Part shown: positions 43,957-63,100 of the stretch, piece after piece
Layout: every line of letters starts with the position of its first letter
How positions within the stretch are numbered: position 1 is the stretch's first letter
NCBI GenBank assembly: GCA_963664435.2
Contig: CAXXKM010000001.1
Coordinates: forward strand, 640,001 to 704,000
Source: Longimicrobiales bacterium
Lineage (GTDB): Bacteria; Gemmatimonadota; Gemmatimonadetes; Longimicrobiales; Gaopeijiaceae
Length of the DNA: 64,000 nucleotides
Direction of reading: 5' to 3'
Made by a program: the position numbers and the translations under genes
The notes under the pieces: generated by a model
Told to the model about the DNA's origin: nothing
Seen by the model: only the letters and a program-made list of their open reading frames with translations
Databases searched by the model: none

Positions 43957-46900
43957 TCACGACGGCTCCCCCGCCCGCGCCAGCAAGTCTGCGAAGTTGT
44001 ACAGAACGCCGGTCGCGCCAAAATCCGGCTCTCGCCGGAAGGGGTGTCGTAGGTAGTGGACCCGGTGTCCACCCTTCTCCAGGAACTCCACGATTGCCAG
44101 GATGTAGTCATCTGGCTTGTTGAGGGAAAACAGAATCTCGTTTCGGGTGACCGTGATCGTCGGTGCCCCCTCCACCCGGCCCTTCACCTCAATGAACCGA
44201 AGCCGACCCGTTTCGGGGACCCGGCTCTCAATGTCGTACCCCAGCTTCTCGAACTCCCGGTCCGTGGGATCGAACCCCATACCGCGCTCGACATCCATGA
44301 TGATTTCTCGGGCGCGAGCCGCGATGGCCTGCGTATCGGTGACTGCAGCCGTCTTCTTCTCTTGCCGCCCGGCGATCCTGTCCAATAGCCCCTTGGGCAC
44401 GACCAGCATTCCGCCCAGCACGACCGGTGGCCCGGCTGAGATCCGCCGCGCCAGAGCCAGCTCTTCGAGCCGTTCCTGCAACCTGGCCTGCAACTGGTCG
44501 GCGCGCTTCGCCGCCTCACGTGAATTGAGCCGCGCGTTCGGGTGACCCGCCTTCTCGCGGAGCTTCAAGTCCTCGGCACGGTGGTCCCAGTAGGAGATTT
44601 CCTTCGTGAGCCGATCCTTGACTGCCGCCTCGGTCTTGTCGATGGCCGACATCCTGGCATCTCGAATCTCCCTCAAGTGCTCTGGCACCACATGCGCAGC
44701 AGCATACGCCTCGGCCTGACCCTCAAGCTCCTGGTTGATCCAGGCACAATCGGGGAGGCCGAGGATGTCGTCGGGCCAGGGTTCGTCCGGGGCGAGCGGC
44801 CGGAAGTCGAGGTATGGAGCGTACCGCACGTGGCCCCGCGCACCTTCCGGGCCAAAGTCGAGGTAGATCATCTGCTTTGAGATGATCCGCTCCTCACCCG
44901 CTGGCGTCGGTCGGCCGTCGTGAACCGAGTGCTCAAGGTAAAGGAGGACACGCGCTTCCACGCCGTGGTCGCTTTCGTCGACCAACACTGCACCACGCTT
45001 CAAGAGGGTGCGGTTCCGCTCCAGAGTCAGATCGAGCACGGCGTCGAGTAGCGGGTGACCCGGACAGACGAAGGCGGCTTGCGCCTGTCCGCGCGGTGCC
45101 ACCAGAGCCTTCTCGAACGCGATGCGCTCGTAGCGGACGGATACAGGCTCGCGCGCGCCCATGTCCCTGGCACGCTTTCGCACAGCAGCGGGCACCCGCG
45201 AGATCTGATACCGGCGCGGCTCGCGCTGCCTGGCCGAACCACCCAGTTGCTTGAACGCCGCCAAGAAGAACGATTCGATGAAATGGGGCTGCAGGCGTCT
45301 CGCGTCTGCACGTTCCATCTCTTCTCGGACCGCGTGCAGGCGGCTGGTGTCCATCGAGTCCTTGGCCAAAGCGTGCTCATACATGAGCCCACGCAACCGG
45401 TCCCGATCCAGCGCCTGGGAGACCACGGTGTTGAGATGGGCCCGCACCTCCGGCCTCTCCCCAAAGCGAATCGCCCTGACCAGGAGGTCCTTCAGGGACC
45501 GTCCCTCGAACTGGACCTGTCCGAGCACATCGAAGACCTGCCCGCCCAGAGCTTGCCGCTCGGTCTCCAGCTTGTCAAGCAGCGTGCGGTAGACCTTGCC
45601 TTCCCGCGTGTCTTCGGCGAGGAGATTCCACAGGTGACAGACTTCGGTCTGACCGATGCGATGGATGCGTCCGAAGCGCTGCTCCAGCCGATTAGGGTTC
45701 CACGGCAGATCGTAGTTCACCATCAGATGGGCGCGCTGCAGGTTGATCCCCTCGCCAGCCGCATCGGTGGCGAGCAGCACCCTGACCTTGGGATTGTGGC
45801 GGAAGGCTTCTTGCGCCTCCAGCCGGTTGGGCCGGTTCAGCCCTCCGTGAATGACAACCACGGCCTCGGGTCGCCCGATCAACGTGGTGATCCGGTCGTT
45901 CAGGTAGTTGAGCGTGTCCTTGTGTTCGGTGAAGATGACGAGCTTCTGACCCGGCGAAGGCTTGGGTGGCGGGACATCGCCCGCTCCGTAACGAACTGCG
46001 GGCTCGTTGATCCGGGACGCGAGAGCCGCCGGGGTGAAGATCTTGCCAAGAAGGCCAGCCAACTCCCGCCACTTGGTGTCGTCGCTGCGGTTCAGGACCT
46101 GTCGAGCAAGCTGCTCAAGCCCATGCAGCGTGTCTATTTCCGCCCGAAGTTCATCGATTGACCTGGCGGCCGTGGCCCGATCCATCACCTCGGCTTCGGT
46201 GGCTTCGAATTCGCCCTCGGGAGCATCTTCCAGATCTTCGAGGTCTTCCAAGTCCAGTTCGGGAGCGCCGAACACCGGCGGGTAGCCAGTTGTCGCATCC
46301 CGGAGCTGTTCCAATTCCTTCAGCCGGTCCTGGAGGCGATGCCGGCGCCTTAGCAGCGATTGGTAGATTGCCTGGGGCGATGAGGCGAGTCGGCGCTGGA
46401 GGATCGTCAGGGCGAACCCGACGGTTGTGCGCTTCTTTCCGTCGAGCCTCTCGGCACGATCGAACTCCCGTTGTACGTAATGAGTGACCGCGTCGTACAG
46501 AGAAGCCTCGGCGGACGAGAGCTTGTAAGGGACCGTGTAGGCCCGGCGCACCGGGAAAAGCGGAGTGCCGTCGAACTTCAGCAACTCTTCCTTCACCATG
46601 CGGCGCATCAGATCCGAGGTATCGGTGCGGTGAACGCCGGTGCGGAAACGGCCCTCGAACCGATCGCCGTCCAGCAACGCCATGAAGAGTTGGAAATCGT
46701 CCTCCTTGCCGTTGTGCGGCGTCGCCGTCATGAGGAGGAAGTGGCGGGTCAGGCGGCCGAGGAGCTGTCCCAAGTGGTATCGCTTCGTGTACTTGACCTT
46801 CCTACCGAAATAGGTCGCCGACATCTTGTGCGCTTCGTCGCACACGATCAGATCCCAGCGGCAATCCGGCGCTTTCAACAACTCCTGGACCTCTTCGTTA

Positions 46901-47526
46901 CGGGACAGCATATCCAGGCGCGCGATCACCAAATCGTTCTTCTCAAACCAGTTCTCCGGCCGCGCCGCTTGTAGTGCCTCGCTGGTGTAGAGCGCAAAGG
47001 CAAGATGGAAGCGCGTCTCAAGTTCCTCCTGCCACTGCTCGGCCAGGCTGCCGGGACAGACGACCAGACAGCGCTCGAGGTCTCCGCGGGCGATCAACTC
47101 CTTCATGAGCAGCCCCGCCATGATCGTTTTCCCGCTCCCGGGATCGTCGGCGAGCAGGAAGCGGAGGGGCTGGCGGGGCAGCATCGACTCATAGACGGCC
47201 GTGATCTGATGGGGAAGAGGCTCGACCAGGGACGTATGGACTGCGAGGAGGGGATCGAAAAGGTGAGCGAGGCGGATGCGCTGGGCTTCGGAGACGAGGC
47301 GGAAAAGAGCACCGTCGGCGTCGAAGGCCCACGGGCGGGCGTGAGCGCTGGCTTCGAGGCTGGTTTCGTCGCTCCGGTACAGGATCTTGGTGTTGACCGC
47401 ATCCGAGAGGGTCCGATAGGTGACCTGAACGGCCTGTGATCCCAACCACTTCGTGGCCAAGATCGTCACGGGTCCTTCCGGGTCAATACCCTCTACTGCA
47501 GCGTGCTGAAGGTTTTCGAGCTTCAC
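43957..47526 (-). CDS. SNF2 helicase with C-terminal DUF3883 nuclease-like domain
   Basis: LADDPGSGKT, DEAH, TATPH, EQRFGRIHRIGQ, GYDIES..FIEVKG. Confidence 0.93.
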   Translation of the reverse strand: MKLENLQHAAVEGIDPEGPVTILATKWLGSQAVQVTYRTLSDAVNTKILYRSDETSLEASAHARPWAFDADGALFRLVSEAQRIRLAHLFDPLLAVHTSLVEPLPHQITAVYESMLPRQPLRFLLADDPGSGKTIMAGLLMKELIARGDLERCLVVCPGSLAEQWQEELETRFHLAFALYTSEALQAARPENWFEKNDLVIARLDMLSRNEEVQELLKAPDCRWDLIVCDEAHKMSATYFGRKVKYTKRYHLGQLLGRLTRHFLLMTATPHNGKEDDFQLFMALLDGDRFEGRFRTGVHRTDTSDLMRRMVKEELLKFDGTPLFPVRRAYTVPYKLSSAEASLYDAVTHYVQREFDRAERLDGKKRTTVGFALTILQRRLASSPQAIYQSLLRRRHRLQDRLKELEQLRDATTGYPPVFGAPELDLEDLEDLEDAPEGEFEATEAEVMDRATAARSIDELRAEIDTLHGLEQLARQVLNRSDDTKWRELAGLLGKIFTPAALASRINEPAVRYGAGDVPPPKPSPGQKLVIFTEHKDTLNYLNDRITTLIGRPEAVVVIHGGLNRPNRLEAQEAFRHNPKVRVLLATDAAGEGINLQRAHLMVNYDLPWNPNRLEQRFGRIHRIGQTEVCHLWNLLAEDTREGKVYRTLLDKLETERQALGGQVFDVLGQVQFEGRSLKDLLVRAIRFGERPEVRAHLNTVVSQALDRDRLRGLMYEHALAKDSMDTSRLHAVREEMERADARRLQPHFIESFFLAAFKQLGGSARQREPRRYQISRVPAAVRKRARDMGAREPVSVRYERIAFEKALVAPRGQAQAAFVCPGHPLLDAVLDLTLERNRTLLKRGAVLVDESDHGVEARVLLYLEHSVHDGRPTPAGEERIISKQMIYLDFGPEGARGHVRYAPYLDFRPLAPDEPWPDDILGLPDCAWINQELEGQAEAYAAAHVVPEHLREIRDARMSAIDKTEAAVKDRLTKEISYWDHRAEDLKLREKAGHPNARLNSREAAKRADQLQARLQERLEELALARRISAGPPVVLGGMLVVPKGLLDRIAGRQEKKTAAVTDTQAIAARAREIIMDVERGMGFDPTDREFEKLGYDIESRVPETGRLRFIEVKGRVEGAPTITVTRNEILFSLNKPDDYILAIVEFLEKGGHRVHYLRHPFRREPDFGATGVLYNFADLLARAGEPS

Positions 47527-47550
47527 AGGGTTAGCATCCGCCTCGGTCTT

Positions 47551-49944
47551 TCAGGCTGCCATTCGCCAACCCGAGCTGATGCGACCGGTCCTCGTCCGCT
47601 CGCTCGATCCACCAAACTGGATGCGCCCAGCGCGGAACCTCCCGTAGCGGGTGTATACCGCCATGCCGGGGCCGATGGCTGCCTGCGCGAGGTCTACGGG
47701 GGCGATGTTGCCGGACTGGAGGAGGTAGAGGGCTTGCGGGAGTTCGGAGCGGAGGGCGGTGAGGAATTCGCGGCGGGTGGCGAGTGGGGCGTTGGCGGGC
47801 CGGCGGCGGCAGACGAGGACGATGCTGGAGGCGAGGGCGTTGGTGCCTCTGCTGATCATGCGATTCGCGAGCTCGGTTCGGATCGGCCAAGTGCCGGTGA
47901 TTGCGAAGCCCGAGCCGATCGCAGCATCCAAGAAGGTCTCCCAGCCGGTGCTTGAAGTCCCTGAGTTGCCCCTCGTCTCTACTTGCTTGAAGGCGTAGTA
48001 GACGGTGATCGGGAATACAGGGTGCGCCTGTTCTGCAAGCCGACTAAGCGCTCGCCTCATGCCAGTGAGGAAGTAGTCCTCAGCGGCGTCCTTTGACCCG
48101 TGTCTGTACGGTGTCGCAACGAGTTCTTCCGCTTTCGGAACCGCTAGCGTGCCGAACAGGTGCGGAAACACGGGTTTCAGGGTGCGTCGTAGCCAAACAT
48201 AGAAGAAGTCCGAGAGATCGGCGTATCCAACGTTGTCGTAGTATGGGGGGTCAGTCGAAACAACTGGCGCGTCACGCCACACTTCATCCTGGGCCGCGGC
48301 TTGGTAGGCTCGACCGAGTCTGCCTGGATACAGCCGGTCCAGGACTCGCATCATATTATTGAGCGAGGTGAGAAGGTCTCCGGCCATACCTCCGAAGACA
48401 TTGGCCTCAGAATAGTCCCAGACCATCGGCAGGGCCTGTCGACCAAAGGTGCCAATCGACTGATTCATCGTACTCTTCCACCGACATAGCGACGATTGAG
48501 CATCGGACAGCTTGCTGACGCCCAACGCCAGATACAGGGCCACAGCCTCGGCGTACGCGCGCGCGCCTGTGCCGCCGTTGCGCAGGGGCAGGTCGTCGTC
48601 AGGAAGGCCTGCGGCTACCGCGTCCCGCCGGATCTGCTGGGTTGCTTCGCCGACGAGATCGGAAAAGGTGGTCAGGGCGACGAGCTGACGCGGCGTGAAG
48701 AGGTCCCGCCACCGAAGCATTCCATATTGCTGAACCCGGAATCCAAGTGCCCGATCCGGCAGGCGCGCCTCTGGTACTCGTTGTGGCTGAGCGCTTCGGG
48801 CGATTACGTCCATTTCCCGTGTTGGCGCCAAGTAGACCCGGCCACGATCACCCTGCGCCACGATGGACATTAGCCGGCTACCCATTCGACCCGCTTTGGC
48901 CTCATCCCTGAGGTACGCGAATGGCATAGGTGCTCCAGACATCATGCACAGGAACTGACTGCCGCTACCGCCGGACTTGGTCCCTCTCCTGCGTAGGGCG
49001 AGATCAGGCGGAGGCCCCGATTTGACCCGGAACCGATACCTCCGTCCCTCAATCACCGGCTCGATATACGCCTCCTTGCCCTTCTTGGTCGACAGCATCC
49101 ATGTGGAAGCAAGCGGAACCTCGACATCAACGAACGCCGGGTTCGGGCTACGCACGGTGCGCGCCCAAAGCCACGCAATCACTGTCAGATTCCGCCCTAG
49201 GTACGGCTTCAGATCCGACCGCTCATTGACCATCTCCGGGGTCACTTCAACCTGCGGGTACAGGTGACCGATCCGGCGTTGGGCCTGGTCGCGCATCCAC
49301 TGCCCGTAGTGCCGGACATCCTCGGCCAGCCCACGGCCGCCTTCCCACTGTCGCTCAACCAGCTCGGCCGCGGATAGCGCCTCCTGGTTGACCGGGGGGG
49401 TGCCGGCGAATCTCGGAGGAATCTCGATCATCGCCTTGCAGATCAGGACCGCCACAGGGTTGAGGTCGCTGGCGTATGCCTCCAACCCGAGCCGTTGCGC
49501 CTCCAGCGGGAGGGCCCCTCCTCCGGCGAAGGGATCGTGGAAGGCCGGCAACTGATCCGGGTTGAACAACTCTTGGGCGCGGGGGTGGCCAGCGTTGGCC
49601 CGGCAAGTTCGCTGCCAGCTCCTATGAATCTCATGGCGTGCCCGGGCGAGCAGATCCTCGTTCGTCGTGTTCTCCCACCGCACCAGCCGCTCCAGAATCC
49701 CGAATAGCCGATCCCGTTCGCGCTCTTGAGACTCCTTGGTGGGGAACCGCTCCGGGTCCGCAGACGGATCGTCCACCATCTGGGCGAAGATGACCGCCCG
49801 CGCGGCGGCCAAAGGTCGTCGCGCCCACCACAGGTGCAACGTGCTGGGATGACCGTGCCGGATGGACTTCTCCCGTCTTGACGCTGAGTTGATTGCGTCG
49901 AGGGGCAGAGCTACCTCAATGAGCTTTTTTCGGGACACCGTCAT
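47551..49944 (-). CDS. DUF1156 adenine MTase copy A, C-terminally truncated
   Basis: [30 protein letters not shown]; homology to copy B stops at YTRYG, followed by an unrelated 29-aa tail. Confidence 0.92.
47640..47664 (-). repeat. Outer inverted repeat, left copy (25 bp)
   Basis: Reverse complement atggcggtatacacccgctacggga equals 54342-54366. Confidence 0.95.
48611..48660 (-). repeat. Inner inverted repeat, left copy (50 bp)
   Basis: Perfect reverse complement of 53349-53398. Confidence 0.95.
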
Positions 49945-50047
49945 CAGCGCGTCCGATCCTTATCGAAGAGTCTCGCCAATACCGCGGACGGCGCGTCCGC
50001 GACCTGCGCGCATGCTCCGCCCGCAACACATCGAAGGGAGGAGCACC

Positions 50048-50938
50048 ATGCCCACCACCAGTTTCAGCGGCGGATCAACCGCCCCCAAGCCGATCCCTTT
50101 CGAGACGGTCGCGGAGAAAGCCGTCCGAAGGTACGGGCGCATGTGGAAGCCCGCTACCCTAAAGGTCAACCAGGTCTACTTGCGAAACCAGATCATGCCG
50201 TGGTTCCGAGGGCGGCCAATCGCCGACATCACGCGCGCCGAGGTCCGCCAGTGGTTCGGTACTCTACACGCCACCCCGGCCGCGGCAAACCGCTCCCTTC
50301 CGATTCTCTCCATCATCATGCGGCAGGCGGAGATCTACGGCTATCGGCCGGCAAAGAGCAATCCCTGCAGGCGGATCCGGCGCTACCCGGAGCGGAGGAG
50401 GGAGCGCTTTCTGAACCCCGGTGAGATTCGCCGCCTGGGCCGGGTACTGGCGGACACATCCATGAGAGCGCCCCTCCAGGTGGCCATCGTCCGGCTTCTC
50501 ATGCTGACGGGCTGCAGGCAGAGCGAAATCCGCACGCTGAACTGGGGTGACTATCGCGGAGGCCACCTCTTTCTGCGGGATAGCAAGACCGGTCCCAGAA
50601 CGGTGTGGCTCTCTTCGTCGGCTCGGCGCGTGCTCGACGGATTGCACCGTACGGCCAGCTGTGTCTTTCCCGCTGTCGGCCGTCCCGGATCGATGTCCAC
50701 GGAAACGCTCTACGGGTCATGGCGACGGATTCGCACCGAGGCCGACCTCAGCAGGCTTCGTCTGCACGACCTCCGTCATACCTACGCAAGCTTCGCGCTG
50801 CGGGGCGGCGAATCGGTGGTCATGATTGGCCGATTGCTGGGGCACCGGGATCCCGACACCACCCTCAAGTACACGCACTTCGGGGACGCGATGCTCAGAC
50901 AGGCGGTCGAGAGCGTCGCCACGGTAGTCGGGGAATGA
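50048..50938 (+). CDS. Tyrosine recombinase 1
   Basis: TGCR, SKTG, HDLRH, LLGH, KY; GGAGGAG RBS. Confidence 0.93.
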   Translation: MPTTSFSGGSTAPKPIPFETVAEKAVRRYGRMWKPATLKVNQVYLRNQIMPWFRGRPIADITRAEVRQWFGTLHATPAAANRSLPILSIIMRQAEIYGYRPAKSNPCRRIRRYPERRRERFLNPGEIRRLGRVLADTSMRAPLQVAIVRLLMLTGCRQSEIRTLNWGDYRGGHLFLRDSKTGPRTVWLSSSARRVLDGLHRTASCVFPAVGRPGSMSTETLYGSWRRIRTEADLSRLRLHDLRHTYASFALRGGESVVMIGRLLGHRDPDTTLKYTHFGDAMLRQAVESVATVVGE

Positions 50939-50941
50939 CCG

Positions 50942-51820
50942 ATGGCTGCGCCGAGCTTTGAGGACTTCGTGTCGGGATCCTGGAGAACGGCCTGCTACCA
51001 CCGTTGCAAGCCCTCAACCAGGCAGCGGTTGGATAGCGCGCTTCGCACGCAGTTGCTACCGACTTTCGGTGTACATCGGCTTGACGAGATTCCTCCCTCA
51101 GCGGTCCACGAATGGTTCGACCGCTACAGCCGGACAGCACCCGCGGGTGCGAACCGAATTCTCGACATCCTTAAGCAGATCTACAACTACGCGATCGAGT
51201 GCGGGCTCGTGGACGCGAACCCGGCCCACGGCGTCAGACACAATCCGAGACCCAGAGTCACCCGCTTTCTCTCGCAGGACGAGTTGGCGCGCGTGCACGC
51301 GGCACTGGATGCCCACAGAGGTCGCGGATCCGGTCAACAGCAGGTGGCCATCATCCGCCTCCTTCTGCTGACGGGTTGCCGCAAGGGCGAAATGGTGTGC
51401 CTTCGCTGGGACGAGGTGGACGGAAGGGTCCTGCGTCTGGCTGACAGCAAGACGGGACCGCGGACGGTCTTCCTGAGCAAGGCCGCCCGGGAGTTGATTG
51501 CCCGGCAACCGCGTACCGATAGCCCCTACGTCTTCCCGTCGCTGAAGGATGGATCCCGGCATCGATCCAACGAACTGTCCCTGTGGCGGAAGGTCCAGCG
51601 CGAAGCTGAAATCGACGATGTGAGGCTACACGACCTGCGGCACACCTTCGCGAGCCACGCGGTCATGCAGCGCGTTCCCCTGCCGGTCTTGTCCCAACTC
51701 TTGGGGCATAGCCGCGACCGGATGGCAATGAGGTATGCCCACATCGGTGACCGGGAAGCGGAGGCGGCCGCAGAGCGGGTCGGTACCCAGATTGCAGCAC
51801 TGCTGGGCGACCTTGGCTGA
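50942..51820 (+). CDS. Tyrosine recombinase 2
   Basis: TGCR, SKTG, HDLRH, LLGH, RY. Confidence 0.93.
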   Translation: MAAPSFEDFVSGSWRTACYHRCKPSTRQRLDSALRTQLLPTFGVHRLDEIPPSAVHEWFDRYSRTAPAGANRILDILKQIYNYAIECGLVDANPAHGVRHNPRPRVTRFLSQDELARVHAALDAHRGRGSGQQQVAIIRLLLLTGCRKGEMVCLRWDEVDGRVLRLADSKTGPRTVFLSKAARELIARQPRTDSPYVFPSLKDGSRHRSNELSLWRKVQREAEIDDVRLHDLRHTFASHAVMQRVPLPVLSQLLGHSRDRMAMRYAHIGDREAEAAAERVGTQIAALLGDLG

Positions 51821-52016
51821 GGTTCAAGCCCGATGTCGAACCGGTATCCGGTGCGTGGTGTGCAGCTTATGTCCCAAAATGACAACGACTTGACCTCACA
51901 CGTGACCACGCCCGCTTGGCGGGAAGCATCTGCGGGCCATTGACGAGCGAGCTTTGTGCCGGGCACACTTGTCAGCGATTCGTTCTATCGTTCGCCCCTG
52001 CAACCATACTGGCCAT

Positions 52017-54935
52017 ATGTCCCATATGGATTCCCATATCGTCCGGACTCCGCCCGTTAGCCAGCGCAAGAAACTCATTGAAGTTGCGCTCCCGCTCGAC
52101 GCTATCAACGATGCCTCGAGGCGCGAAAAATCGATCCGGCACGGCCATCCCAGCACCCTTCATCTCTGGTGGGCGCGCCGACCTCTGGCGGCTGCGCGCG
52201 CCGTCATCTTCGCCCAAATGGTGGATGATCCTTCGGAGGACCCCGATCGGTTCCCGACGGAGGAGACGAGAACGCGCGAACGGACGCGCTTGTTCCGGCT
52301 GATCGAAGAACTCGTGACTTGGGAGAACACGACGAATCAGGAAGTCTTGAAGCGCGCTCGCGAGGAAATCCTGCGAAGCTGGCGGAGATCGTGCGCTGAC
52401 AACTCAGATCACCCACGGGCGACGGAACTCTTCGATCCTGAAAAATTGCCGGCGTTCCACGATCCGTTCGCCGGGGGTGGTGCCCTACCGCTGGAGGCTC
52501 AGCGCCTCGGACTGGAAGCTCACGCAAGCGATCTCAACCCCGTGGCGGTGTTGATCAACAAGGCCATGATCGAGGTTCCACCGAGGTTCGCTGGTCGCGC
52601 GCCAGTGCACGCCAGTGCTCGCCCCGATGCACCGAGGACGCCTGGGGTATTGATCGATCGGGATTGGCGGGGGGCGCAGGGCCTGGCCGAAGATGTCAGG
52701 CGTTACGGCAAGTGGATGAGGGACGAAGCCGAAAAACGGATCGGAGGGCTGTATCCGAGGATTGCCGTGACCGGGGAAATGGCGCGCGAGCGTCCCGACC
52801 TGAGGTCGTATGTGGGCCGGGACCTCACCGTGATCGCGTGGCTGTGGGCGCGGACAGTTCCGAGTCCCAATCCGGCGTTCGGAGATGTGGAGGTTCCCTT
52901 GGCGTCAACCTTCATGTTATCGACCAAGAAGGGAAAGGAGGCATACGTTGAGCCGGTGATCCGGGACCATGAGTATCGGTTCGACGTTCGCGCCGGCCCA
53001 CCGCCGGCCCGCGCCGCAGCAAGGAAGGGCACGAAACTGTCGCGTGGGGCGAACTTCCGCTGCCTTCTGTCGGGCGCGCCGCTGGCACCTGCCTACATCA
53101 AGTCAGAGGGCCGCGCCGGTCGAATGGGAGCACGGCTGATGGCGATTGTGGCGCAGGGGGACCGTGAGAGGGTGTATCTGAATCCGACCGATGACCACGC
53201 GGAGACCGCGCAGCGGGCGCGGCCGACGTGGCGGCCGGATTTGAGTCAGCCCAAGAACCCCCGCTGGTTCTCACCTCCGGACTACGGCCTCTCCACCTTT
53301 GGCGACCTCTTCACCCCCCGCCAGCTAGTGGCCCTTACCACCTTCTCGGATCTCGTCGGCGAAGCAACCCAGCAGATCCGGCGGGACGCGGTAGCCGCGG
53401 GCCTTGCCGACGATGACGTTCCATTACGTGATGGAGGCCTCGGCGCGCGCGCGTATGCCGAGGCTGTGGCCCTGTATCTGGGCATCACGGTGAGTAGGCT
53501 CGCCAACCGCCAAGCCACCCTGTGCTTTTGGGACCGGATGCGCGAAGGCGTACAGCAGGTGTTCGCGCGCCAAGCCCTACCAATGGTTTGGGACTACTGC
53601 GAAGGTAATCCCTTCAGCGCTTCCAGCGGCAATTGGGTTGTTCAGTTAAAGTTTCCCGCGAAGATGATTGAGGCCGCCCCGGCAATGATCCCGGGCCATG
53701 CTGAGCAAGCAGATGCACGCGTGAGTACGTTGGCTTTCAGTCGAGTGGTTTCGACGGACCCTCCGTACTATGACAACATCGGATACGCGGATCTCTCCGA
53801 TTTCTTCTACATTTGGTTGCGTCGTTCGCTGAAGCCGTTGTTTCCCGGTCTCTTTGCCACGCTGGCAGTGCCGAAGGCCGGGGAACTCGTTGCCACACCG
53901 TATCGGCACGGAAACAAGGAAGCTGCAGAGGGATTCTTCCTTGAGGGCATGACCAAGGCGACCCGCCATCTTGCAGAGCAGGCCCATCCAAGCTTCCCGG
54001 TCACGATCTACTACGCCTTTAAACAGTCGGAGGGCAAAGGCGGCGCGGGTGTCGTCAGCACCGGCTGGGAAACGTTCCTGGACGGCGCAATGCGATCAGG
54101 GTTCGCGATCACGGGGACGTGGCCTATACGCACCGAAAACGTGGCTGCACTCAAGAAGAACGTCGCCGCCCTCGCCTCAAGCATCGTCTTGGTCTGCCGC
54201 CGCCGCCCCACCAACGCACCCCTCGCCACCCGCCGGGAGTTCCTCACCGCCCTCCGCTCCGAGCTGCCGCAAGCCCTCGACCTCCTCCAGTCCGGCAACA
54301 TCGCCCCGGTTGACCTCGCGCAGGCGGCCATCGGGCCGGGAATGGCGGTATACACCCGCTACGGGAAGGTACTCGACGCCAACGGACAGCCCATGAAGGT
54401 CCGCGAGGCCTTGGCCATGATCAACCAGATCCTCGACGAATCGCTCGCCGAGCAGGAAGGCGACTTCGACGCGGATACTCGCTGGGCGCTTGCCTGGTTC
54501 GAGGAGCGTGGCTTCGAGGAAGGGGAGTTCGGAGTGGCAGAGATGCTGTCCAAGGCCAAGAACACCAGCGTGCAGGGGTTGGTGCAGGCAGGAATCCTCG
54601 AATCGCGCGCGGGCAAGGTCCGCCTGCTGCGACCTTCCGAGTTGCCTGCGGAATGGGATCCGTCGACCGATATCCGGCTCACAACTTGGGAGATGGTCCA
54701 CCACCTGATTAGACTCCTCGAAAGCGACGGGGAGGTAGCGGCAGCGGGTCTCGTCAGGCACTTGGGGAGCGTCGCCGATGTCGCTCGCGATCTGGCCTAC
54801 AGGCTCTTTTCCATCGCGGAACGAAAGAAGCGGGCTACGGAGGCACTTCAGTACAACGGTCTGGTCGGAAGTTGGGCGGAAATCAGGCGGATGGCGGGCA
54901 CGGAGGCGGCCGCAGAACAGACGGAGCTGTTGTAA
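52017..54935 (+). CDS. DUF1156 adenine MTase copy B, full length
   Basis: Same motifs as copy A plus about 190-aa C-terminal domain; start 52017 or 52026. Confidence 0.93.
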   Translation: MSHMDSHIVRTPPVSQRKKLIEVALPLDAINDASRREKSIRHGHPSTLHLWWARRPLAAARAVIFAQMVDDPSEDPDRFPTEETRTRERTRLFRLIEELVTWENTTNQEVLKRAREEILRSWRRSCADNSDHPRATELFDPEKLPAFHDPFAGGGALPLEAQRLGLEAHASDLNPVAVLINKAMIEVPPRFAGRAPVHASARPDAPRTPGVLIDRDWRGAQGLAEDVRRYGKWMRDEAEKRIGGLYPRIAVTGEMARERPDLRSYVGRDLTVIAWLWARTVPSPNPAFGDVEVPLASTFMLSTKKGKEAYVEPVIRDHEYRFDVRAGPPPARAAARKGTKLSRGANFRCLLSGAPLAPAYIKSEGRAGRMGARLMAIVAQGDRERVYLNPTDDHAETAQRARPTWRPDLSQPKNPRWFSPPDYGLSTFGDLFTPRQLVALTTFSDLVGEATQQIRRDAVAAGLADDDVPLRDGGLGARAYAEAVALYLGITVSRLANRQATLCFWDRMREGVQQVFARQALPMVWDYCEGNPFSASSGNWVVQLKFPAKMIEAAPAMIPGHAEQADARVSTLAFSRVVSTDPPYYDNIGYADLSDFFYIWLRRSLKPLFPGLFATLAVPKAGELVATPYRHGNKEAAEGFFLEGMTKATRHLAEQAHPSFPVTIYYAFKQSEGKGGAGVVSTGWETFLDGAMRSGFAITGTWPIRTENVAALKKNVAALASSIVLVCRRRPTNAPLATRREFLTALRSELPQALDLLQSGNIAPVDLAQAAIGPGMAVYTRYGKVLDANGQPMKVREALAMINQILDESLAEQEGDFDADTRWALAWFEERGFEEGEFGVAEMLSKAKNTSVQGLVQAGILESRAGKVRLLRPSELPAEWDPSTDIRLTTWEMVHHLIRLLESDGEVAAAGLVRHLGSVADVARDLAYRLFSIAERKKRATEALQYNGLVGSWAEIRRMAGTEAAAEQTELL
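53349..53398 (+). repeat. Inner inverted repeat, right copy (50 bp)
   Basis: gatctcgtcggcgaagcaacccagcagatccggcgggacgcggtagccgc. Confidence 0.95.
54342..54366 (+). repeat. Outer inverted repeat, right copy (25 bp)
   Basis: atggcggtatacacccgctacggga. Confidence 0.95.
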
Positions 54936-54994: not shown

Positions 54995-56170
54995 ATGAGA
55001 ATCGAGAATATCGAGATCGAGAACTACCGGCTGTTTCGCCGCGCAGAGCTACGGAATCTACCCCGGCTCACCATCGTCGTGGGTGCGAACGGTTCGGGGA
55101 AGTCCACGCTCTTCGACGTGTTCACCTTCCTCAAGGATGCTCTCACCCACAACGTTGCGACTGCCGTAACGCGGCGTGGGGGGTTTCGGGAGCTGGTCTC
55201 GCGCGGGAGCGAGGGCCCGATCGGAATCACCGTCCAGTTCCGCGAAAGTGGTGGGCGGCTTGCGACCTACGTCCTCGAAGTCACCACCAGAAACGGTCGA
55301 GTCGTCGTTGGCCGCGAGGTGCTCCGGTATCGGCGCGGACGGTACGGGAAGCCTTGGCATTTCGTCGACTTCATTTGTGGCGAAGGATATGCCATCACCA
55401 ATGAGTCGGTCTACGGTCAGGAGGGAGTTCAGGAAGCGCGCGAGGAGTTCAAGCTCGACGATCCGAGTGTGCTCGCCATCAAGGGTTTGGGACAATTCCA
55501 GCGGTTTCGAGTGGTATCGGAGTTCCGTAGCTTGATCGAGAACTGGCACATCTCGGACTTCCACATCTCGGATGCGAGACCGAGCGTGGAGGCTGGATTC
55601 GCCGAGCATCTGTCCACCCGAGGCGACAACGTGGCGCAGGTCGCTCAGTACCTCTATCAGCACCATCCGGAATGCTTTGATCGAGTTCTCGAGGCGATGA
55701 GTTCACGGGTACCCGGGGTCAGCCGAGTCGAAGCAAGGCCGACGGAAGACGGTCGGCTGGTGCTGCGCTTTCAGGACCACTCGTTCCGAGATCCGTTCAT
55801 CGCCCGCTTCGTCAGCGACGGTACGATCAAGATGTTCGCGTACCTGATTCTCCTCTACGATCCCAAGCCGCATCCGCTGCTGGCCGTGGAAGAGCCTGAG
55901 AACCAGTTGTACCCGGACCTTTTGCTGGAACTCGTTGAGGAGTTCAGGGACTACGCGAGGCGCGGTGGCCAAGTCTTCGTTTCGACCCATTCTCCGTTCT
56001 TCCTGAATGGGGCCGGACTGGACGAGGTCTTCTGGTTGGCCAAGGAAAACGGCTTCACAAAGGTGCGCAGAGCGTCCACCGACGACCTGCTCAAGGGGTT
56101 GGTCGCGGAGGGCGACAAGTTGGGCACGCTGTGGAGGCAAGGTCTCTTCGAAGGAGCGGGACCGCGATGA
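54995..56170 (+). CDS. AAA_15/AAA_21-type ABC ATPase
   Basis: GANGSGKS, SDGT, EEPEN, STHSP. Confidence 0.9.
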   Translation: MRIENIEIENYRLFRRAELRNLPRLTIVVGANGSGKSTLFDVFTFLKDALTHNVATAVTRRGGFRELVSRGSEGPIGITVQFRESGGRLATYVLEVTTRNGRVVVGREVLRYRRGRYGKPWHFVDFICGEGYAITNESVYGQEGVQEAREEFKLDDPSVLAIKGLGQFQRFRVVSEFRSLIENWHISDFHISDARPSVEAGFAEHLSTRGDNVAQVAQYLYQHHPECFDRVLEAMSSRVPGVSRVEARPTEDGRLVLRFQDHSFRDPFIARFVSDGTIKMFAYLILLYDPKPHPLLAVEEPENQLYPDLLLELVEEFRDYARRGGQVFVSTHSPFFLNGAGLDEVFWLAKENGFTKVRRASTDDLLKGLVAEGDKLGTLWRQGLFEGAGPR

Positions 56171-56739
56171 GCAGAGTAGTGTTTCTGCTCGAAGAGTACT
56201 CGATGAAAACGCTTCTGGACGGGCTCCTTCCCCGGCTGTTTCCGCAGCTGGTGTTTCTGTGCGTGCCTCATGAAGGCAAGGGCGATCTGGAAAAGAGCAT
56301 CCCAAGAAAGCTCCGAGGCTGGCGGGAGCCCGGCGTTCGCTTCGTCGTAGTGAGAGACAATGACCGGGGTGATTGCCTTGGCCTGAAGAACCACCTTCGT
56401 GATCTGTGCTCCGTCCGCCCGGCCGAGGACGTCGTGGTCCGCATCGTGTGCCAGGAACTCGAAGCCTGGTACCTAGGCGAGCCCGACGCCTTGGCTGAAG
56501 CGTTCGAGAAGGAATCCCTCCGCAGGATCGGTTCTCGATCGCGCTTGCGCCAGCCCGATGCCGTCCCATACCCGGCGAAAGAGCTGGCCAGGCAGATTCC
56601 AAGGTTCCAGAAGGTGTCCGGTGCGCGTCTTCTCGCCGAACACCTTACACGCGAGCGAAACCGATCCCCGAGCTTTCATGCCATGATGGACGGCGTCGAA
56701 CGACTCGCCTCACGGCTTATCTCCACCCACCAAACCTGA
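56167..56739 (+). CDS. DUF4276 family protein (TOPRIM-like)
   Basis: LLEEYS, HEGKGDL, RDND, ELEAWY, NRSPSF; ATGA-coupled to the ATPase. Confidence 0.8.
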   Translation: MSRVVFLLEEYSMKTLLDGLLPRLFPQLVFLCVPHEGKGDLEKSIPRKLRGWREPGVRFVVVRDNDRGDCLGLKNHLRDLCSVRPAEDVVVRIVCQELEAWYLGEPDALAEAFEKESLRRIGSRSRLRQPDAVPYPAKELARQIPRFQKVSGARLLAEHLTRERNRSPSFHAMMDGVERLASRLISTHQT

Positions 56740-56742
56740 CAC

Positions 56743-59700
56743 ATGGCTATCACCAACCACGAGCGCGTCGGCAAGGCGATGGAGCTTCTCCGCGGCGGCC
56801 TGGGCTCCTTCGTTGAACGTGAAATCAAGACCGCGCACCCTCCCAGGACCACCGTAGCCCGCGAAACTCTTCGGTACTTGGACAACCACGAGCTGGCCAG
56901 GCGGCCCATCGCGGACTGGGACGCGCACGCGCTCCTGCTTCTGATGTGGAAGTCCTGGAACACGGTCTTCAGAACCACGCTGGGCCACGCCGAACGCAAC
57001 TATGTGTCGGAACTTCGTGACGCCAGGAATCGGTGGGCTCACCAGCAGAGCTTCTCCACGGACGACGCCCATCGCGTGCTGGACTCGACCCATCGGCTGT
57101 TGACGGCAATCTCGGCTCCCGAGGCGGCGGAGGCCGACAAGATGAGGATGGATCTCCTCCGGCGTCGGTTCAACGAGCAGGCTCGTCACATCAGGCGGCA
57201 AACAACCCAGACAGCCCTCGAAATCGGCGCCACATCGTCTCTTCCCGCTTGGCGGGACGTGGTTGACCCCCACCCGGATGTTGCGAGCGGCAGGTACAAC
57301 CAGGCCGAGTTTGCTGCGGATCTCTGGCAGGTGTATCGGGGAGAGGGCTCGCACGAGTACCGGAACCCGGTCGAGTTCTTCCGGCGCACCTATCTGACCG
57401 AGAGCTTGCGTGCCATGCTTATCGGCGCGGTACGCCGAGTTACTTCCGGCAGAGGCGACCCGGTCATCCAGCTCCAGACCAACTTCGGTGGTGGCAAGAC
57501 CCATTCCATGCTGGCGCTGTACCACCTCTTCTCGGGTACTCCTCCGACGAGCCTCGCGGGAGTCGATGAGCTTATGACCGAGGCCAAGGTCGCAGGACTC
57601 CCATCGGTTCGCCGAGTCGTCCTGGTCGGCAACAAGATCTCGCCTGCGCGGCCAGATCGAAAACCGGACGGTACGATTGTCCACACCCTGTGGGGTGAGC
57701 TCGCGTGGCAGCTCGGCGGCCGGGATGCCTACCGGAGGATTGCAGCTGACGACGAGAAGGGCACCAGCCCCGGTGACGCCATTCGCGGTCTGCTCAACGA
57801 CTTCGGTCCGTGCGTGGTGCTCATCGACGAGTGGGTAGCGTACGCGAGGCAGCTGCACGACCGCAGCGACTTGCCGGCGGGGAGCTTCGAGACCCAGTTC
57901 ACCTTCGCCCAAACCCTGACCGAGTCGGCGAAGGCGGCGTCCAACTGCCTCCTCGTCATCAGCCTTCCGGCTTCGGACACGGCTGCGGCGCCGCACACTC
58001 GGGCCGACGACGTGGAGGTAGGGGGCGTTCGCGGCCGGGAAGCCCTGAACCGATTGAGCAACGTCGTAGGCCGGCTGGAATCGGCCTGGCATCCCGCCAC
58101 GGCCGAAGAAGGCTTCGCGATCGTCAGACGGCGTCTCTTCGCGCCGATGACCGAAGAGGCGTATAAGCAGCGCGATGCGGTCGCACGGACCTTCGCGGAC
58201 TTCTATCGGCGCCAACACCAGGAATTCCCTGTTGAGTGCCGCGACGGGGAGTATGAGCGGCGATTGAAGGAGGCGTACCCCATCCACCCCGAAGTCTTCG
58301 ACCGGTTGTACGAAGACTGGTCCACGCTGCTGAGGTTCCAACGCACGCGGGGCGTACTGCGGCTGATGGCCTCGGTCATTCACAGCCTGTGGGAAAAGGG
58401 AGACAAGAGCCCGCTCATCATGCCCTCCCTGGTGCCGATCGACGATGCGCGCGTGCGCTCCGAACTCACGAGCTATCTGCCCGACCGCTGGGTGCCGATC
58501 ATCGAATCGGACGTGGACGGGCCGAACTCCCTTCCCCTCCGCATGGATGGCCAGTACAGCAACCTGGGCAAGCTGAATGCCTGCCGACGCGTTGCCCGGA
58601 CGGTCTATCTCGGATCCGCACCGCTGACGGAGGCGGCCCGAAAGGGCATGGACGACCGCCGGGTAAAGTTGGGGTGCGTGCTCCCGGGAGAGTCGGCAGC
58701 AATCTTCGGTGACGCCTTGCGACGTTTGGCTGGCGCGGCAACCTACCTATACCAGAACGGCCCCCGCGTCTGGTACGACACGCAACCCACGGTCACCAAG
58801 CTCGCACGGGACAGGGCTGCGCAGCTGGAACGCGATCCCGACAAAGTTGCCGAGGAGATTGGACGCCGCGTGCAGACGGATGCGGCGAAGCGAGGCGACT
58901 TCCATGGCGTCCACTGCTTTCCGCGCGAGCCGGCGGATGTTCCGGATGACCCGAGCGTTCGTCTGGTGATTCTCGGCACTGACGCGCACTACATCAGGGG
59001 TGGCAACAGCCCCGCTGAAGCTGCGGCTCGCCAGTTGCTGGACTCACGCGGGGCGGGGCCTCGCCTTTGCCGCAACGCGGTCGTATTCCTCGCGCCTGAC
59101 AGGACGCGGCTGCAGGACCTTGAGGGCACGGTACGAATGTACCTCGCCTGGCAATCAATCGTCGGCGAGAAGGAGACCCTGAATCTCGATCCTTTCCAGG
59201 TAAAGCAGGCAGAGACCCGTCTGAAGGAGGAGGAGGGACGGGTGAAGGGCCAGATCCCCGAGGTGTTCCAATGGCTTCTGGTTCCGGTGCAGAGCAAGCC
59301 GGAGGACCAGGTGGGCTGGGAAGCTATGCGACTGATGGGAACGGGTGAGCTGGCCGTCCGGGCGAGCACGAGGCTCAGGCGTGAGGAGCTACTCGTTATC
59401 AGCTATGGGAGTACTCGCCTCCGCATGGATCTCGATCGTATTCCTCTGTGGCAGGACCACGTGGAGATTCGCCAGTTGGCGGACCACTATTCGCGATACA
59501 CGTATCTGCAGCGAGTTGAGGATCCCTCGGTGATCGCGGAGGCTGTGCGCGATGGGGTCGGGCTGCTGACGTGGGAGACGGACACGTTCGCCTACGCGGA
59601 AGGCTTTGACGAGGAGAAGGGACGTTACCTGGGGCTCCGTGCAGGCGAGGCTTTGCAACAGCCCTTGACGGCCGACAGCCCCGGCTTGGTGGTTCGACCG

Positions 59701-60060
59701 AAGATTGCCCGGAAGCAGATGGATGAAGAGGTGCGGCCGGAGCCCGGACCGGGGCCAGGACCAGAGCCGGGGCCAGGGCCCGGACCGGAGCCGGGACCAG
59801 GACCAGGACCGGATCCCCAGCCGGCTCCGCGGCGCTTCCACGGAAGCGTCGATATCGATCCAGTCCGGGCAGGCAAGGTGGTGGGTCAGATTGCCGAAGA
59901 GGTCGTTTCGCATCTGACCGGTCTGGTGGGATCGAGAGTAGAACTAACCCTCGAGATCGAGGCGGAGATCCCGGATGGAGCTCCGGAGCATGTGGTTCGC
60001 ACCGTTACGGAGAACGCGAGGACGCTGCGCTTCACGAGTCAGGAGTTTGAGGAGGAGTAG
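56743..60060 (+). CDS. DUF499 AAA+ ATPase with N-terminal Swt1-like HEPN domain
   Basis: RNRWAH, LQTNFGGGKTH, LIDE, YPIHP, FQRTRGVLRLMA. Confidence 0.9.
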   Translation: MAITNHERVGKAMELLRGGLGSFVEREIKTAHPPRTTVARETLRYLDNHELARRPIADWDAHALLLLMWKSWNTVFRTTLGHAERNYVSELRDARNRWAHQQSFSTDDAHRVLDSTHRLLTAISAPEAAEADKMRMDLLRRRFNEQARHIRRQTTQTALEIGATSSLPAWRDVVDPHPDVASGRYNQAEFAADLWQVYRGEGSHEYRNPVEFFRRTYLTESLRAMLIGAVRRVTSGRGDPVIQLQTNFGGGKTHSMLALYHLFSGTPPTSLAGVDELMTEAKVAGLPSVRRVVLVGNKISPARPDRKPDGTIVHTLWGELAWQLGGRDAYRRIAADDEKGTSPGDAIRGLLNDFGPCVVLIDEWVAYARQLHDRSDLPAGSFETQFTFAQTLTESAKAASNCLLVISLPASDTAAAPHTRADDVEVGGVRGREALNRLSNVVGRLESAWHPATAEEGFAIVRRRLFAPMTEEAYKQRDAVARTFADFYRRQHQEFPVECRDGEYERRLKEAYPIHPEVFDRLYEDWSTLLRFQRTRGVLRLMASVIHSLWEKGDKSPLIMPSLVPIDDARVRSELTSYLPDRWVPIIESDVDGPNSLPLRMDGQYSNLGKLNACRRVARTVYLGSAPLTEAARKGMDDRRVKLGCVLPGESAAIFGDALRRLAGAATYLYQNGPRVWYDTQPTVTKLARDRAAQLERDPDKVAEEIGRRVQTDAAKRGDFHGVHCFPREPADVPDDPSVRLVILGTDAHYIRGGNSPAEAAARQLLDSRGAGPRLCRNAVVFLAPDRTRLQDLEGTVRMYLAWQSIVGEKETLNLDPFQVKQAETRLKEEEGRVKGQIPEVFQWLLVPVQSKPEDQVGWEAMRLMGTGELAVRASTRLRREELLVISYGSTRLRMDLDRIPLWQDHVEIRQLADHYSRYTYLQRVEDPSVIAEAVRDGVGLLTWETDTFAYAEGFDEEKGRYLGLRAGEALQQPLTADSPGLVVRPKIARKQMDEEVRPEPGPGPGPEPGPGPGPEPGPGPGPDPQPAPRRFHGSVDIDPVRAGKVVGQIAEEVVSHLTGLVGSRVELTLEIEAEIPDGAPEHVVRTVTENARTLRFTSQEFEEE
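59737..59808 (+). repeat. 3 x 24-bp repeat encoding PEPGPGPG linker
   Basis: Seen in the translation near the DUF499 C-terminus. Confidence 0.9.
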
Positions 60061-60181
60061 CGGGGCGCAGCCCCGGCGTAACCCGTGATCCGCTCAGGCA
60101 GGCTCTTCATAGTATCACCGCTCTCCGTCGCATAGTATCATCGCATTGCGGGGTCAAGACCTGCCCCGCGGAGACCCGCTG

Positions 60182-63100
60182 ATGACCGAAGAACTCAAGA
60201 GTGCCAGGGACAAGGTTCTCGTAGACAATACGGCGCAGGCTGTCTTCAAACACCTCGACCGCATCAAGGACAACCGCAGCGCGCTGGGCGCCCGCTGGAT
60301 CTGGGAACTGCTGCAAAACGCCCGTGACGCGGCAGGCCGACAGGGTGTCCAGATCAGGGCCCATGTGTCGGCCAGCGAGTTTCGATTCGAGCACGACGGC
60401 AAGCCGTTTGCTTCCAAGGAGATAGCACATCTAGTCTACCACGGCTCGACGAAGATCGATTTCGAGGACATCGGCCAGTTTGGTTCAGGATTCCTGGCCA
60501 CGCACCTCCTGTCCAAGATCGTCCGCGTCACCGGGCGGCTCGAGGACTCGCGCGGGTTCGACTTCCCGCTGGACCGCACCGGCGGGACCGCCGAAGAGCT
60601 GCGCGAAGCAATGGACCGTTCGTGGGCTGCGTTCGAGCAGTCAGTCCAAGATGCCCGACCTGCATCGGACGCAACCACCTCTTTCGCGTACAATACCGCT
60701 GAACCGGGGGCGCGCGAGCTTGTCGAGGCAGGGCTGGAGGAACTTCGCCGGAGCGGACCGCTGGTCTTGGCGTTCTGTCCGGAGATCACGGAGATCGCCG
60801 TCGAGACCTCCGATGCCGAGTGGAAGCTCTCACGAGAAAGCCGGGAAGAAGGCGGCATCCGAATGATTCGGTACGTGGGAGACGCCGGGGAGCAGTCGCG
60901 TTTCGTCGCAGTCGCGGGAGCGGAAAGCGAGTGCTGCGCGGCGCTCCAACTGCGCTCCGGGGAATCCGGACTTGAGGTGGCCCCAGCGCAGGAGACGGCG
61001 GCGAAGCTCTTCGTGCTGTTCCCTCTCGTTGGCAGCGAGCGGCTGGGGCTCCCGGCCACGGGTCAACAGCCGACAGTTCAAGCCCCGCGAGGACCGGGAC
61101 GGCATCGTGGCCGGGGACTCGGTAGGCGCGCTAGGAAACAGGCGGCTCTTGGAGGCCTCCGTGCGACATCAGGAGCAACTCTTCGAGTGGTGCGCGCAGA
61201 AGAAGTGGGCGGGTGCGGAGCGAATGCTTGCCTTCGACATCGCACGGCTACCTGACTGGGCAAAGGGTGCCCCTTGGTTCCGCCCGCTGCTGATCGAATT
61301 GGTGTGCAAGGCTCGCGAGACTCCGCTAATGCGGACCCCGGGAGGGGAATGGACCGAACCGCAGGCAGCGTGGCTGCCGACGACTGACGACCCGTCGCAC
61401 CGTGAGTGGCTCTGGAAGCTCATGTCGTCGTGGGAGGGGGCACAGGCGAGGTTGCCCTGCCTCGACGACTTGGCCTCTTGGTCACGGAACCTCTCTGGAT
61501 GGCAGACACTCCTGCGCAGATCGCGCGAAGACATGGACGAGGCCCTCACGATCACCAAAGTCGCCCGTCTCGTCGGCGACGCGCGCAGCGTGGACGGACT
61601 GCAGGAACGATTGGTAAACGGCGCGGCGCAGTCCTGGCTCGTGTCGCTGCTCGAACTTGCACTGGATGCCGGCGAAACCGGACTCCTCGACACGCACAAC
61701 CTGCTACCGACTCAGGGCGGCGGGCTGCGCCGACGTCCTGACATTCGCCGCGACGAGGGAATCTCCGAAGAACTCAAAGACATCGCGGAGGCGTTCGGGC
61801 TGGAAATCCGCGACGAACTGCTCGACAAGCGCGCAGAGATGGAAGGACTGGCGGAGCTTCTCACGTCGGAGGGCGAGCCGGAACTGCTCGACAAGGTCTT
61901 GGCGCGCGTTAAGGAGGAAGCCCGGGACGGGGTGATCAGGACGCGGCTCGCACCTTGGGTAGTCAAGCTGTTCCGCTGGATCGCTGACCGTCCGGATTAC
62001 GTCGAGCGCTTGGATGGCTATCCGGTGCCGACATCCGAACAGTCCGAGGAAGGAGTCGTTGTGCTGCTTCTCGAGCGGGGACGCGAGGCGCCCCTACGGC
62101 CACTGGCACCGGTGGCGACCTGGCCCGAGTGCGCGCAGCGGTTCGGTTCCCTGTTCCCGAGACGCAGGGTCCTGGCGGAAGCCTTCGCCGACGGCGATCC
62201 CGAGGTGTGGCCGCGCCTAGCCGCGATCGGCTACGTGAACGCGTCCCCGCTAATCGAGACGCAGCGCGTGGTGGAAGCGTTCCTGCCGGACGAACCGCTC
62301 CCGGACACAGAGGAGACCCCCTTGGGATCGCACAAGTCGACGCAGGAGTTGGAGGTATCGGATGTCGCCTGCCTCGTCGGGGCCAGGGGCCTAATCGACA
62401 CGGCCCGTAAGAGTAGGAAACGCGCCACGGAGTTCGTCCGGTTCTTGGTCGAGTTCGCGGCCGAGGCGGACGAGCGCGCCTTCGAAGTATGCGAGGTCGA
62501 CTGCGAATGTGGGGACAGCCACAGGACCTACCGGGCCGCATGGCTCGCGCCGCTACGCCATCGGCGGTGGGTGCCGCTCGGCGCCCGCGGGCGCCGGGGG
62601 ACGATGGCATCGGCGGAGTCGTTGGCGGGGCTCCTCGATGACTCGCAGGAAGTCTCGGAGATCCTGTCCGGGATCCGGGCAGAGAAGCTCTTGGACGCCT
62701 TGGCAATCAGCCGCGCGGACCTCGCGCTACGGGTTGTCGCCGGCGACGAGAACGAGCGGCTGGCGCTGATCGCGTCGATGCAGGATCTCGCCGCAGTGGC
62801 TGGTGACATCGACCGTGTTCGGGAGCTGACGACCGAGATCCGCGAGCACCCGGAGATCATCGACTCAATCAGAGAGCGGAAGATCCGTCGGACCAAGATC
62901 CAGCGGAATCAGGAGATCGGGAACCTAGTCGAGCAGCTCCTGCGGCAGGAGTTGGAAGGCCGCGGACTGACCGTGCGGCGTACCGGGATCGGGTCCGACT
63001 TCGAGGTTGAGAGCGACTTCGTCGAGGAAGAGCAGGAGGTGGGCCTCGAACTTTCCAGCGGCCGCGGCACCACGCTCATCGAGGTGAAAAGCACTAGGAT

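Follow-up and report, generated by a model that had tools for sequence, protein, structure and literature searches.

Two copies of a defense methyltransferase gene, hmaB, lie head to head around two tyrosine recombinase genes in the bacterial DNA analyzed here, which raises the question of whether hmaB is shuffled by programmed inversion and, if so, where the exchanges take place. The window, a 64,000-nucleotide stretch of a Longimicrobiales contig, had been annotated from its sequence alone. That initial annotation drew attention to a 50-bp perfect inverted repeat shared by the two copies and proposed that nested inversions, one at this repeat and one further out, could produce four alleles. 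The features of the locus are collected in Table 1.

Table 1. Features of the hmaB locus (positions are those of the window)
Feature	Coordinates	Strand	Remarks
hmaA, SNF2 helicase with C-terminal NOV_C nuclease-type domain	43957..47526	-	PADLOC HmaA, 1602 bits over 1-1187; Pfam SNF2, Helicase_C, NOV_C
hmaB copy A (spare)	47551..49944	-	PADLOC HmaB, 1234 bits
Tyrosine recombinase 1	50048..50938	+	Pfam Phage_integrase and Phage_int_M
Tyrosine recombinase 2	50942..51820	+	38% identical to recombinase 1
hmaB copy B, full length	52017..54935	+	PADLOC HmaB, 1497 bits; AlphaFold pLDDT 94
HEC-01 pair, AAA_21 ATPase and DUF4276 protein, between hmaB and hmaC	54995..56739	+	Pfam, PADLOC
hmaC, HEPN_Swt1-DUF499 ATPase	56743..60060	+	Pfam, PADLOC
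Outer repeat, left arm	47631..47839	-	209 nt, 89% to right arm
Outer repeat, right arm	54167..54375	+
Outer core, left	47640..47664	-	25-bp exact tract with constrained Val767 GTA codon; homology ends here
Outer core, right	54342..54366	+	25-bp exact tract
Inner repeat, left arm	48528..48705	-	178 nt, 86%
Inner repeat, right arm	53304..53481	+	Encodes helices 423-449 and 466-487 between V1 and V2
Inner core, left	48528..48552	-	25-bp exact tract, likely crossover region
Inner core, right	53457..53481	+	25-bp exact tract with constrained Ala470 GCC and Tyr476 TAT codons
50-bp exact tract, left arm	48611..48660	-	Likely conversion remnant
50-bp exact tract, right arm	53349..53398	+
Copy A 5' variable module V1	48706..49005	-	A type (15 protein letters not shown)
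Copy A middle variable module	47839..48527	-	V2 48253-48527, V3 47839-47982
Copy B V1	53007..53303	+	SRGANF..NPRWFSPPDY type
Copy B middle variable module	53482..54170	+	V2 53482-53756, V3 54027-54170

The genes are ordered hmaA (-), truncated hmaB (-), the two recombinase genes (+), full-length hmaB (+), the HEC-01 pair (+), and hmaC (+). Copies A and B are 68% identical at the protein level, and no close third copy was found in the genome. The homology of copy A to copy B ends at the YTRYG codons (47640) and is followed by 29 unrelated residues; the truncated copy is devoid of the C-terminus of approximately 190 residues. hmaA starts 24 bp past the stop codon of this spare copy, which lies directly upstream and may be transcribed. 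A scan of positions 47300-52200 for sigma-70-like promoters returned 0 sites (0.7 expected); a divergent promoter is presumed. The start codon of recombinase 1 was our choice, its longest open reading frame beginning at 49862, and that of copy B is uncertain, its residues being numbered from 52050. Recombinase 1 scored below the cut-off of every NCBIfam model. R, K, HxxR, H, and Y residues, which we take to be of the catalytic type, are visible in both recombinase translations.

The locus encodes an SNF2 helicase with a C-terminal NOV_C domain (HmaA), a DUF1156 methyltransferase with SAM-binding and DPPY motifs (HmaB), and a DUF499 ATPase (HmaC); the DPPY motif is invariant in 132 aligned HmaB sequences. 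The genes do not form a co-directional hmaA-hmaB-hmaC operon, as hmaA, located behind the truncated copy, is encoded on the other strand. Judged by its sequence, the locus is a rearranged Hma variant with its genes in non-canonical order. No HsdS model matched the shuffled gene, which scores as HmaB, setting it apart from hsdS of Type I R-M systems. Among 12 proteins scanned at 40560-63434, none matched PglX, BrxC, or PglZ, the proteins that a BREX-1 pglX system should contain.

The 50-bp repeat is genuine. The two tracts are identical at 50 of 50 positions and in codon register, and all eight peptides quoted in the initial annotation are present in the translations, on the sides of the tract that it assigned to them. 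Its estimates of the spans also held, at 4,788 bp for the inner and 6,727 bp for the outer inversion (47640-54366). The paralogs differ at most synonymous sites, as it stated: outside both repeats, copies A and B use the same codon for 167 (43%) of the 386 shared residues whose codons are degenerate. At least 16 consecutive identical codons arose in 0.015% of 20,000 simulations. The tract is not invariant at the DNA level among other hmaB genes, its mean identity being 66% (maximum, 90%) and its longest exact run 17 bp in 312 between-locus pairs. Given the simulations and the low between-locus identity, it reflects neither chance nor family-wide invariance. It is not isolated, however, but part of a 178-bp inverted repeat with 86% identity (48528-48705/53304-53481). 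The exact tracts of this inner repeat measure 50, 14, and 25 bp, and those of the outer repeat 23, 28, and 25 bp; after the 50-bp tract, the next longest exact matches of copy A to copy B measure 28, 25, 25, and 23 bp. The inverted repeats thus lie within coding sequence, in frame, in a locus with two site-specific recombinases of the tyrosine type, as in an inverton.

Comparison of 13 two-copy loci points to an inner exchange site elsewhere in the repeat. Only 7 of them have an equivalent of the 50-bp tract with 98% or higher identity between copies, and in the remaining 6 this identity is 46 to 86%, which fits past gene conversion, the alternative that the initial annotation had offered. The tract is probably a conversion remnant and not the crossover site, to judge from these alignments. 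Exact tracts of at least 20 bp are present in the inner repeat of 11 of 13 two-copy loci (none in L053) and in the outer repeat of 8 of 8 complete loci; the longest reach 191 bp (inner) and 186 bp (outer) among the 13. The region of the inner core (53442-53481) is more similar within than between loci (0.95 versus 0.78), as is the outer core (0.90 versus 0.79), whereas three conserved 5' regions show values of 0.81 to 0.84 versus 0.79 to 0.80. In 17 of 18 truncated copies, the sequence diverges no more than two codons from the outer core.

Synonymous codon usage marks the same two places. Among 528 codon positions, the two strongest outliers were Tyr476, encoded by TAT in 33 of 33 sequences from two-copy loci versus 10 of 18 single-copy genes (background, 32%), and Val767, encoded by GTA in 19 of 23 versus 0 of 11. 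Ala470 (GCC in 31 of 33 versus 3 of 17) ranked fourth, counts that are all inflated by relatedness of the loci. Codons next to these constrained ones vary freely, and no codon of the 50-bp tract is among the top 30 outliers. The two cores share a GTGTAT-like hexamer, which is reversed at the outer one; no common dyad-symmetric site at the cores was convincing by eye.

The ends of assembly contigs in three short-read congeners narrow down the inner site. In G007, each end of the central contig falls at a shared tract of 41 bp, with overlaps of 55 and 41 bp, and the contigs are unbroken at the outer repeat. In G003, a 16-bp shared tract marks one contig end, and the other end lies 39 bp further on (16 + 39 = 55), and in G015 both contigs stop at a 17-bp shared suffix. 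The three tracts overlap at 53466-53477, a 12-bp segment that maps to 48532-48543 on the left arm. The geometry in G003 is that expected of an assembly graph with a k of 55 in which both joins are present; this k was deduced from the overlaps, and mixtures of strains could mimic such branching. Contig ends at two other loci, L048 and L057, were not counted, as they fall in exact repeats of 141 and 99 bp and are compatible with simple repeat collapse. Altogether, the inner crossover most likely occurs in the 25-bp tract at 48528-48552/53457-53481 rather than in the 50-bp tract.

Both orientations coexist in a relative of the same family, G466, in which a single 4.10-Mb contig carries the locus at both ends. 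The left flanks of the two loci (2850/2850) and their right flanks (2274/2274) are identical and run in the same direction, whereas the central 5450 bp are identical but reversed in this polished consensus, and the 5' halves swap cleanly (100%). One of the two states contains an intact 959-codon gene with an A-type V1. V1 is clean in 4 of 4 copies, and V2 is a two-allele mosaic with frameshifts in 3 of 4; among 172 informative sites, the two copies scored had 131 of allele x and 38 of allele y, and 119 and 47, respectively. Such mosaics are expected if both sites exchange, since the reads of four states would have been sorted by central orientation, and a four-state reading of G466 is likely. 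The differences at 53350 and 53456 go with the 5' half whichever state is considered, indicating that the inner exchange takes place downstream of both positions.

Thus, the part of the initial proposal that concerned nested inversions and four alleles found support in relatives, through the two orientations of G466 and reassorted blocks, whereas its inner crossover site is displaced by some 60 to 80 bp, to the 25-bp tract. The four-allele outcome stands because a crossover anywhere in the inner repeat gives the same V1-V2 combinations. We consider it probable that the locus is a two-site, recombinase-driven inverton in an Hma (DUF499-type BREX-related) locus that gives rise to four full-length HmaB alleles. 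Each hmaB copy would consist of a conserved 5' part, V1, the inner repeat, V2/V3, and the outer repeat, with the C-terminus on one copy only. A flip at the inner core would swap the 5' halves with V1, and a flip at the outer core everything up to the C-terminus, yielding four states that combine V1a or V1b with V2a or V2b, each with one full-length and one truncated HmaB. Because the repeats are in codon register, none of the four would be a null intermediate. Exchange would take place at short cores within the long repeats, and the long exact tracts, including that of 50 bp, would be by-products of conversion during or after exchange. The two recombinases would catalyze the flipping, V1 and V2 may set DNA specificity and hence which phages are restricted, and the copy in this organism may still flip. 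With the head-to-head layout, hmaA and hmaC would each remain downstream of an hmaB start in every state. A more detailed version is tentative, and we would sooner doubt than accept it in full: a two-bit specificity switch with no off state, in which a dedicated recombinase pair, with one enzyme per site or both acting jointly, combines the modules independently, each state has its own methylation motif directing restriction by HmaA and HmaC, and hmaA and hmaC are transcribed throughout.

It may be that this class of loci flips while the copy in this organism is locked or rarely flips, its repeats decaying. This reading, which overlaps the preferred one and concerns activity here only, seems to us rather unlikely. 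It is favored by the inner repeat, 86% identical in the window versus 100% in three other loci (L047/L049/L048), and by Logan contigs from three sequencing runs (X4, X5, and X6; contigs drop rare variants), in which no alternative junction at the 25-bp cores appeared among the 32 of 496 pieces listed. The contigs of all three runs are unbroken across the B-side outer core and begin at or before the inner core, and on the A side those of X4 and X5 run through the inner core. The 50-bp repeat breaks contigs whether or not the segment flips, so that the assay is blind at that tract. Against a locked state, both 25-bp cores are exact, neither recombinase frame is interrupted, both frames encode catalytic-type residues, and copy B remains intact. 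The four opposite-strand joints listed were rejected as inversion junctions, as they are 69 to 331 bp out of register and probably come from hmaB genes of other organisms; contig starts at 53442 (X6) and 53453 (X5) were not counted either, a core junction being expected at 53457. The runs that hold the window stretch include a sponge metagenome.

The distribution of the recombinases bears on whether they act on hmaB at all. Among 43 fetched recombinase 1 loci, hmaB lies on both sides in 11 and on one side in 1. The layout recurs across phyla, in Gemmatimonadetes/Longimicrobiales, Acidobacteriota, Verrucomicrobiae, Thermoanaerobaculia, and others, all of the records being metagenome-assembled genomes (MAGs). 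In the window's family, recombinase 2 was found at an E value of at most 1e-70 in 14 of 314 genomes, with an hmaB sequence beside it in 14 of 14 and on both sides in 12. In a tree that left out matches of <200 amino acids or <45% identity, the recombinases linked to hmaB group together with modest support (0.56 and 0.86), in a clade that includes one short contig without hmaB.

Inversions could instead proceed by general homologous recombination across the repeats of approximately 180 to 200 bp, with the recombinases as passengers or island integration enzymes. Exact tracts of 180 to 190 bp in several loci would suit such a process, as would the related recombinase pairs that occur without hmaB in 31 of the 43 fetched loci. 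The same holds for an exchange outside both cores: L054 and L060 have the same V1 pair, placed alike relative to hmaC, and their recombinase genes are flipped. This comparison suggests a possible third exchange site in the conserved 5' parts, which are 97% identical in L060. A tract of 16 bp is too short for efficient general recombination, and the exchange signature in G003 is found at a tract of that length. Together with the synonymous constraint at short cores and the placement of the hmaB-linked recombinases, as a clade, inside the flipped segment, this makes general recombination improbable as the motor. The pairs without hmaB are in tandem, with 53 to 68% identity and some 280 bp apart (L039-L043, L056, and L058-L080, except L060), and belong mostly to Alphaproteobacteria MAGs with varied neighbors (MmeI-like, Type ISP, TIR, and transposase genes).

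There might also be no inversion, the truncated copy being a donor cassette or a duplicate and all exact tracts, including that of 50 bp, footprints of gene conversion. Conversion is real on sequence evidence and can erase diversity: V2 is identical in both copies of L054 (932 bp), where both hmaB copies are truncated, and of L108 (817 bp), and the copies of L110 are 97% identical. Orientation is also skewed, the full-length copy being on the recombinase 2 side in 10 loci, on the other side in 2, and on both in G466; loci with the window's hmaA placement have the same orientation in 7 of 7 cases. Those observations, and the lack of a junction in this organism's contigs, would agree with conversion only. 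In contrast, the two orientations with identical flanks in G466, the contig ends at shared tracts of 16 to 17 bp, the constrained codons at exactly two places, and the fixed truncation point are at odds with it, and we regard it as quite improbable in favor of two-site inversion. Finally, that the recombinases act at the 50-bp tract as their inner site, as literally proposed at the outset, appears very improbable: although it is the longest exact tract in the locus, beyond chance, and nearly invariant between copies in 7 of 13 loci, it has diverged in the other 6, including G007 and G003 with their exchange signature further downstream, and holds none of the top synonymous outliers. In G466, moreover, the differences at 53350 and 53456 remain with the 5' half.

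The variable blocks have been reassorted among genomes. In close relatives, V1 stays with the recombinase segment (74 to 82% DNA identity) and its V2 partners are unrelated (41 to 50%); among the comparisons listed, the same V2 type was on the full-length side in one genome and on the truncated side in another (86%, 84%, and 72%). Natural full-length proteins among 120 database matches combine V1A with V2B (P0005), V1B with V2A (P0008 and P0015), and V1B with V2B (P0001 and P0002); A-type V1 occurs in nine of the 120, and V1A with V2A in none as a full-length protein, copy B having been the query. Reassortment of V1 and V2 is also seen among hmaB genes whose context is unknown, so that by itself it does not need inversion.

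In the AlphaFold model of copy B (pLDDT 94), which replaced a first one with a poor core (pLDDT 69), V1 and most of V2 are part of a large insert flanked by core strands 157-161 and 549-553; the inner repeat forms two helices between V1 and V2, and V3 is partly in a loop between the last two core strands. This insert is called the target-recognition (TRD) insert in a preprint on BREX-related systems (bioRxiv 2025.10.09.681413). The Rossmann methyltransferase core of HmaB aligned with a solved structure over the part that matched (Z score, 15.8; rmsd, 2.3; 177 aligned residues). Foldseek gave no match at an E value of at most 0.001 for either model, a sequence search of solved structures gave one weak methyltransferase match (E value, 0.083), and no DNA-bound structure matching the variable regions was found. 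From the model, V1 and V2 may contact DNA and set specificity. The annotation of HmaB differs between papers: m5C methylase (PMC8565338) or N6 methylase containing a target-recognition insert (bioRxiv 2025.10.09.681413). Its overexpression left T4 sensitivity unchanged in the one published test (PMC11232893).

Programmed inversions are described for BREX-1 pglX of L. rhamnosus and B. casei and for DISARM DrmMI-like methyltransferases (Milman et al. 2023, PMC9881135). As in those systems, a defense methyltransferase gene here faces an inverted partial copy with a recombinase function between them, and nested inversions would swap internal variable parts. In contrast to them, the gene belongs to the HmaB/DUF1156 family, and there are two recombinases instead of one. 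One-inversion variants of pglX lose the C-terminus and are rare, whereas in the head-to-head layout the 5' halves would move and each state would keep one full-length gene. The locus also resembles hsdS invertons as outlined for pneumococcal cod/SpnIII and PsrA (PMC7096588, PMC7672463), in that nested repeats occupy the conserved stretches separating the variable segments, short cores are embedded in long repeats, and the locus has a tyrosine recombinase; for PsrA, short IR1-like sequences lie within the long IR2 and IR3 (PMC7096588/PMC7672463). It differs in not being hsdS or Type I R-M, in having its modules within a single methyltransferase chain, and in its spare copy directly upstream of hmaA. 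The locus works like the pglX/DrmMI and hsdS inversion systems and is a member of neither.

Its relationship is with Hma (Payne et al. 2021, PMC8565338; PMC11232893), that is, the Type-1 DUF499 BREX-related systems of the preprint (bioRxiv 2025.10.09.681413): HmaA, HmaB, and HmaC have the top PADLOC scores, DUF499 is fused to HEPN, and an ATPase pair is inserted between hmaB and hmaC. Published Hma is one three-gene operon, whereas here there are two divergent arms, a duplicated hmaB, and recombinases. The word "inversion" is absent from the main text of PMC8565338, PMC11232893, and bioRxiv 2025.10.09.681413, as is "hma" from that of PMC9881135, one supplementary file of which had 0 matches to DUF1156. 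No report of hmaB/DUF1156 inversion was found in the literature searched, which covered few subscription papers, and the candidate tables of PMC9881135 could list such loci. Two-site inversion would extend programmed methylase shuffling to a widespread defense family. That such a locus would swap precisely two internal blocks is an argument for these blocks determining sequence specificity and for Hma telling self from non-self in a sequence-specific manner. Four natural alleles with a common scaffold would provide material for mapping the recognition code, and the recombinase pair and the two short candidate cores can now be tested.

Several related loci carry additional elements. Extra cargo in or beside the invertible segment (L031 3375-5006, L036 2500-5080, L047 2881-7456, and L052 5601-7106) comprises AAA ATPase, PIN-domain, and Schlafen AlbA_2 genes, and an insertion of approximately 1.8 kb interrupts the full-length hmaB of L047 (13960-15739). 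In G240, the locus is split over two contigs (L111 and L112) with a 2.9-kb inverted element pair around one arm, and its full-length gene has an A-type V1 and inverton-type codons. hmaB is also present at 64 places in 62 plasmid records. The genome of the window holds two further, distant helicase/DUF1156-like/DUF499-like sets with approximately 26 to 34% identity (C2:860256-870157 and C3:53715-79224). In the window, HmaC has a Pro/Gly-rich tandem repeat linker (59727-59810), and a PADLOC match to TmtA at 60146-63434 is split over two overlapping frames (model residues 5-307 and 310-1054), suggesting a frameshift. Part of a TctC-like gene occurs as a 150-bp direct repeat (89%; 39895-40044 and 41864-42013) that brackets an HTH-ImmA/IrrE gene (40560-41831) and may mark an island boundary.
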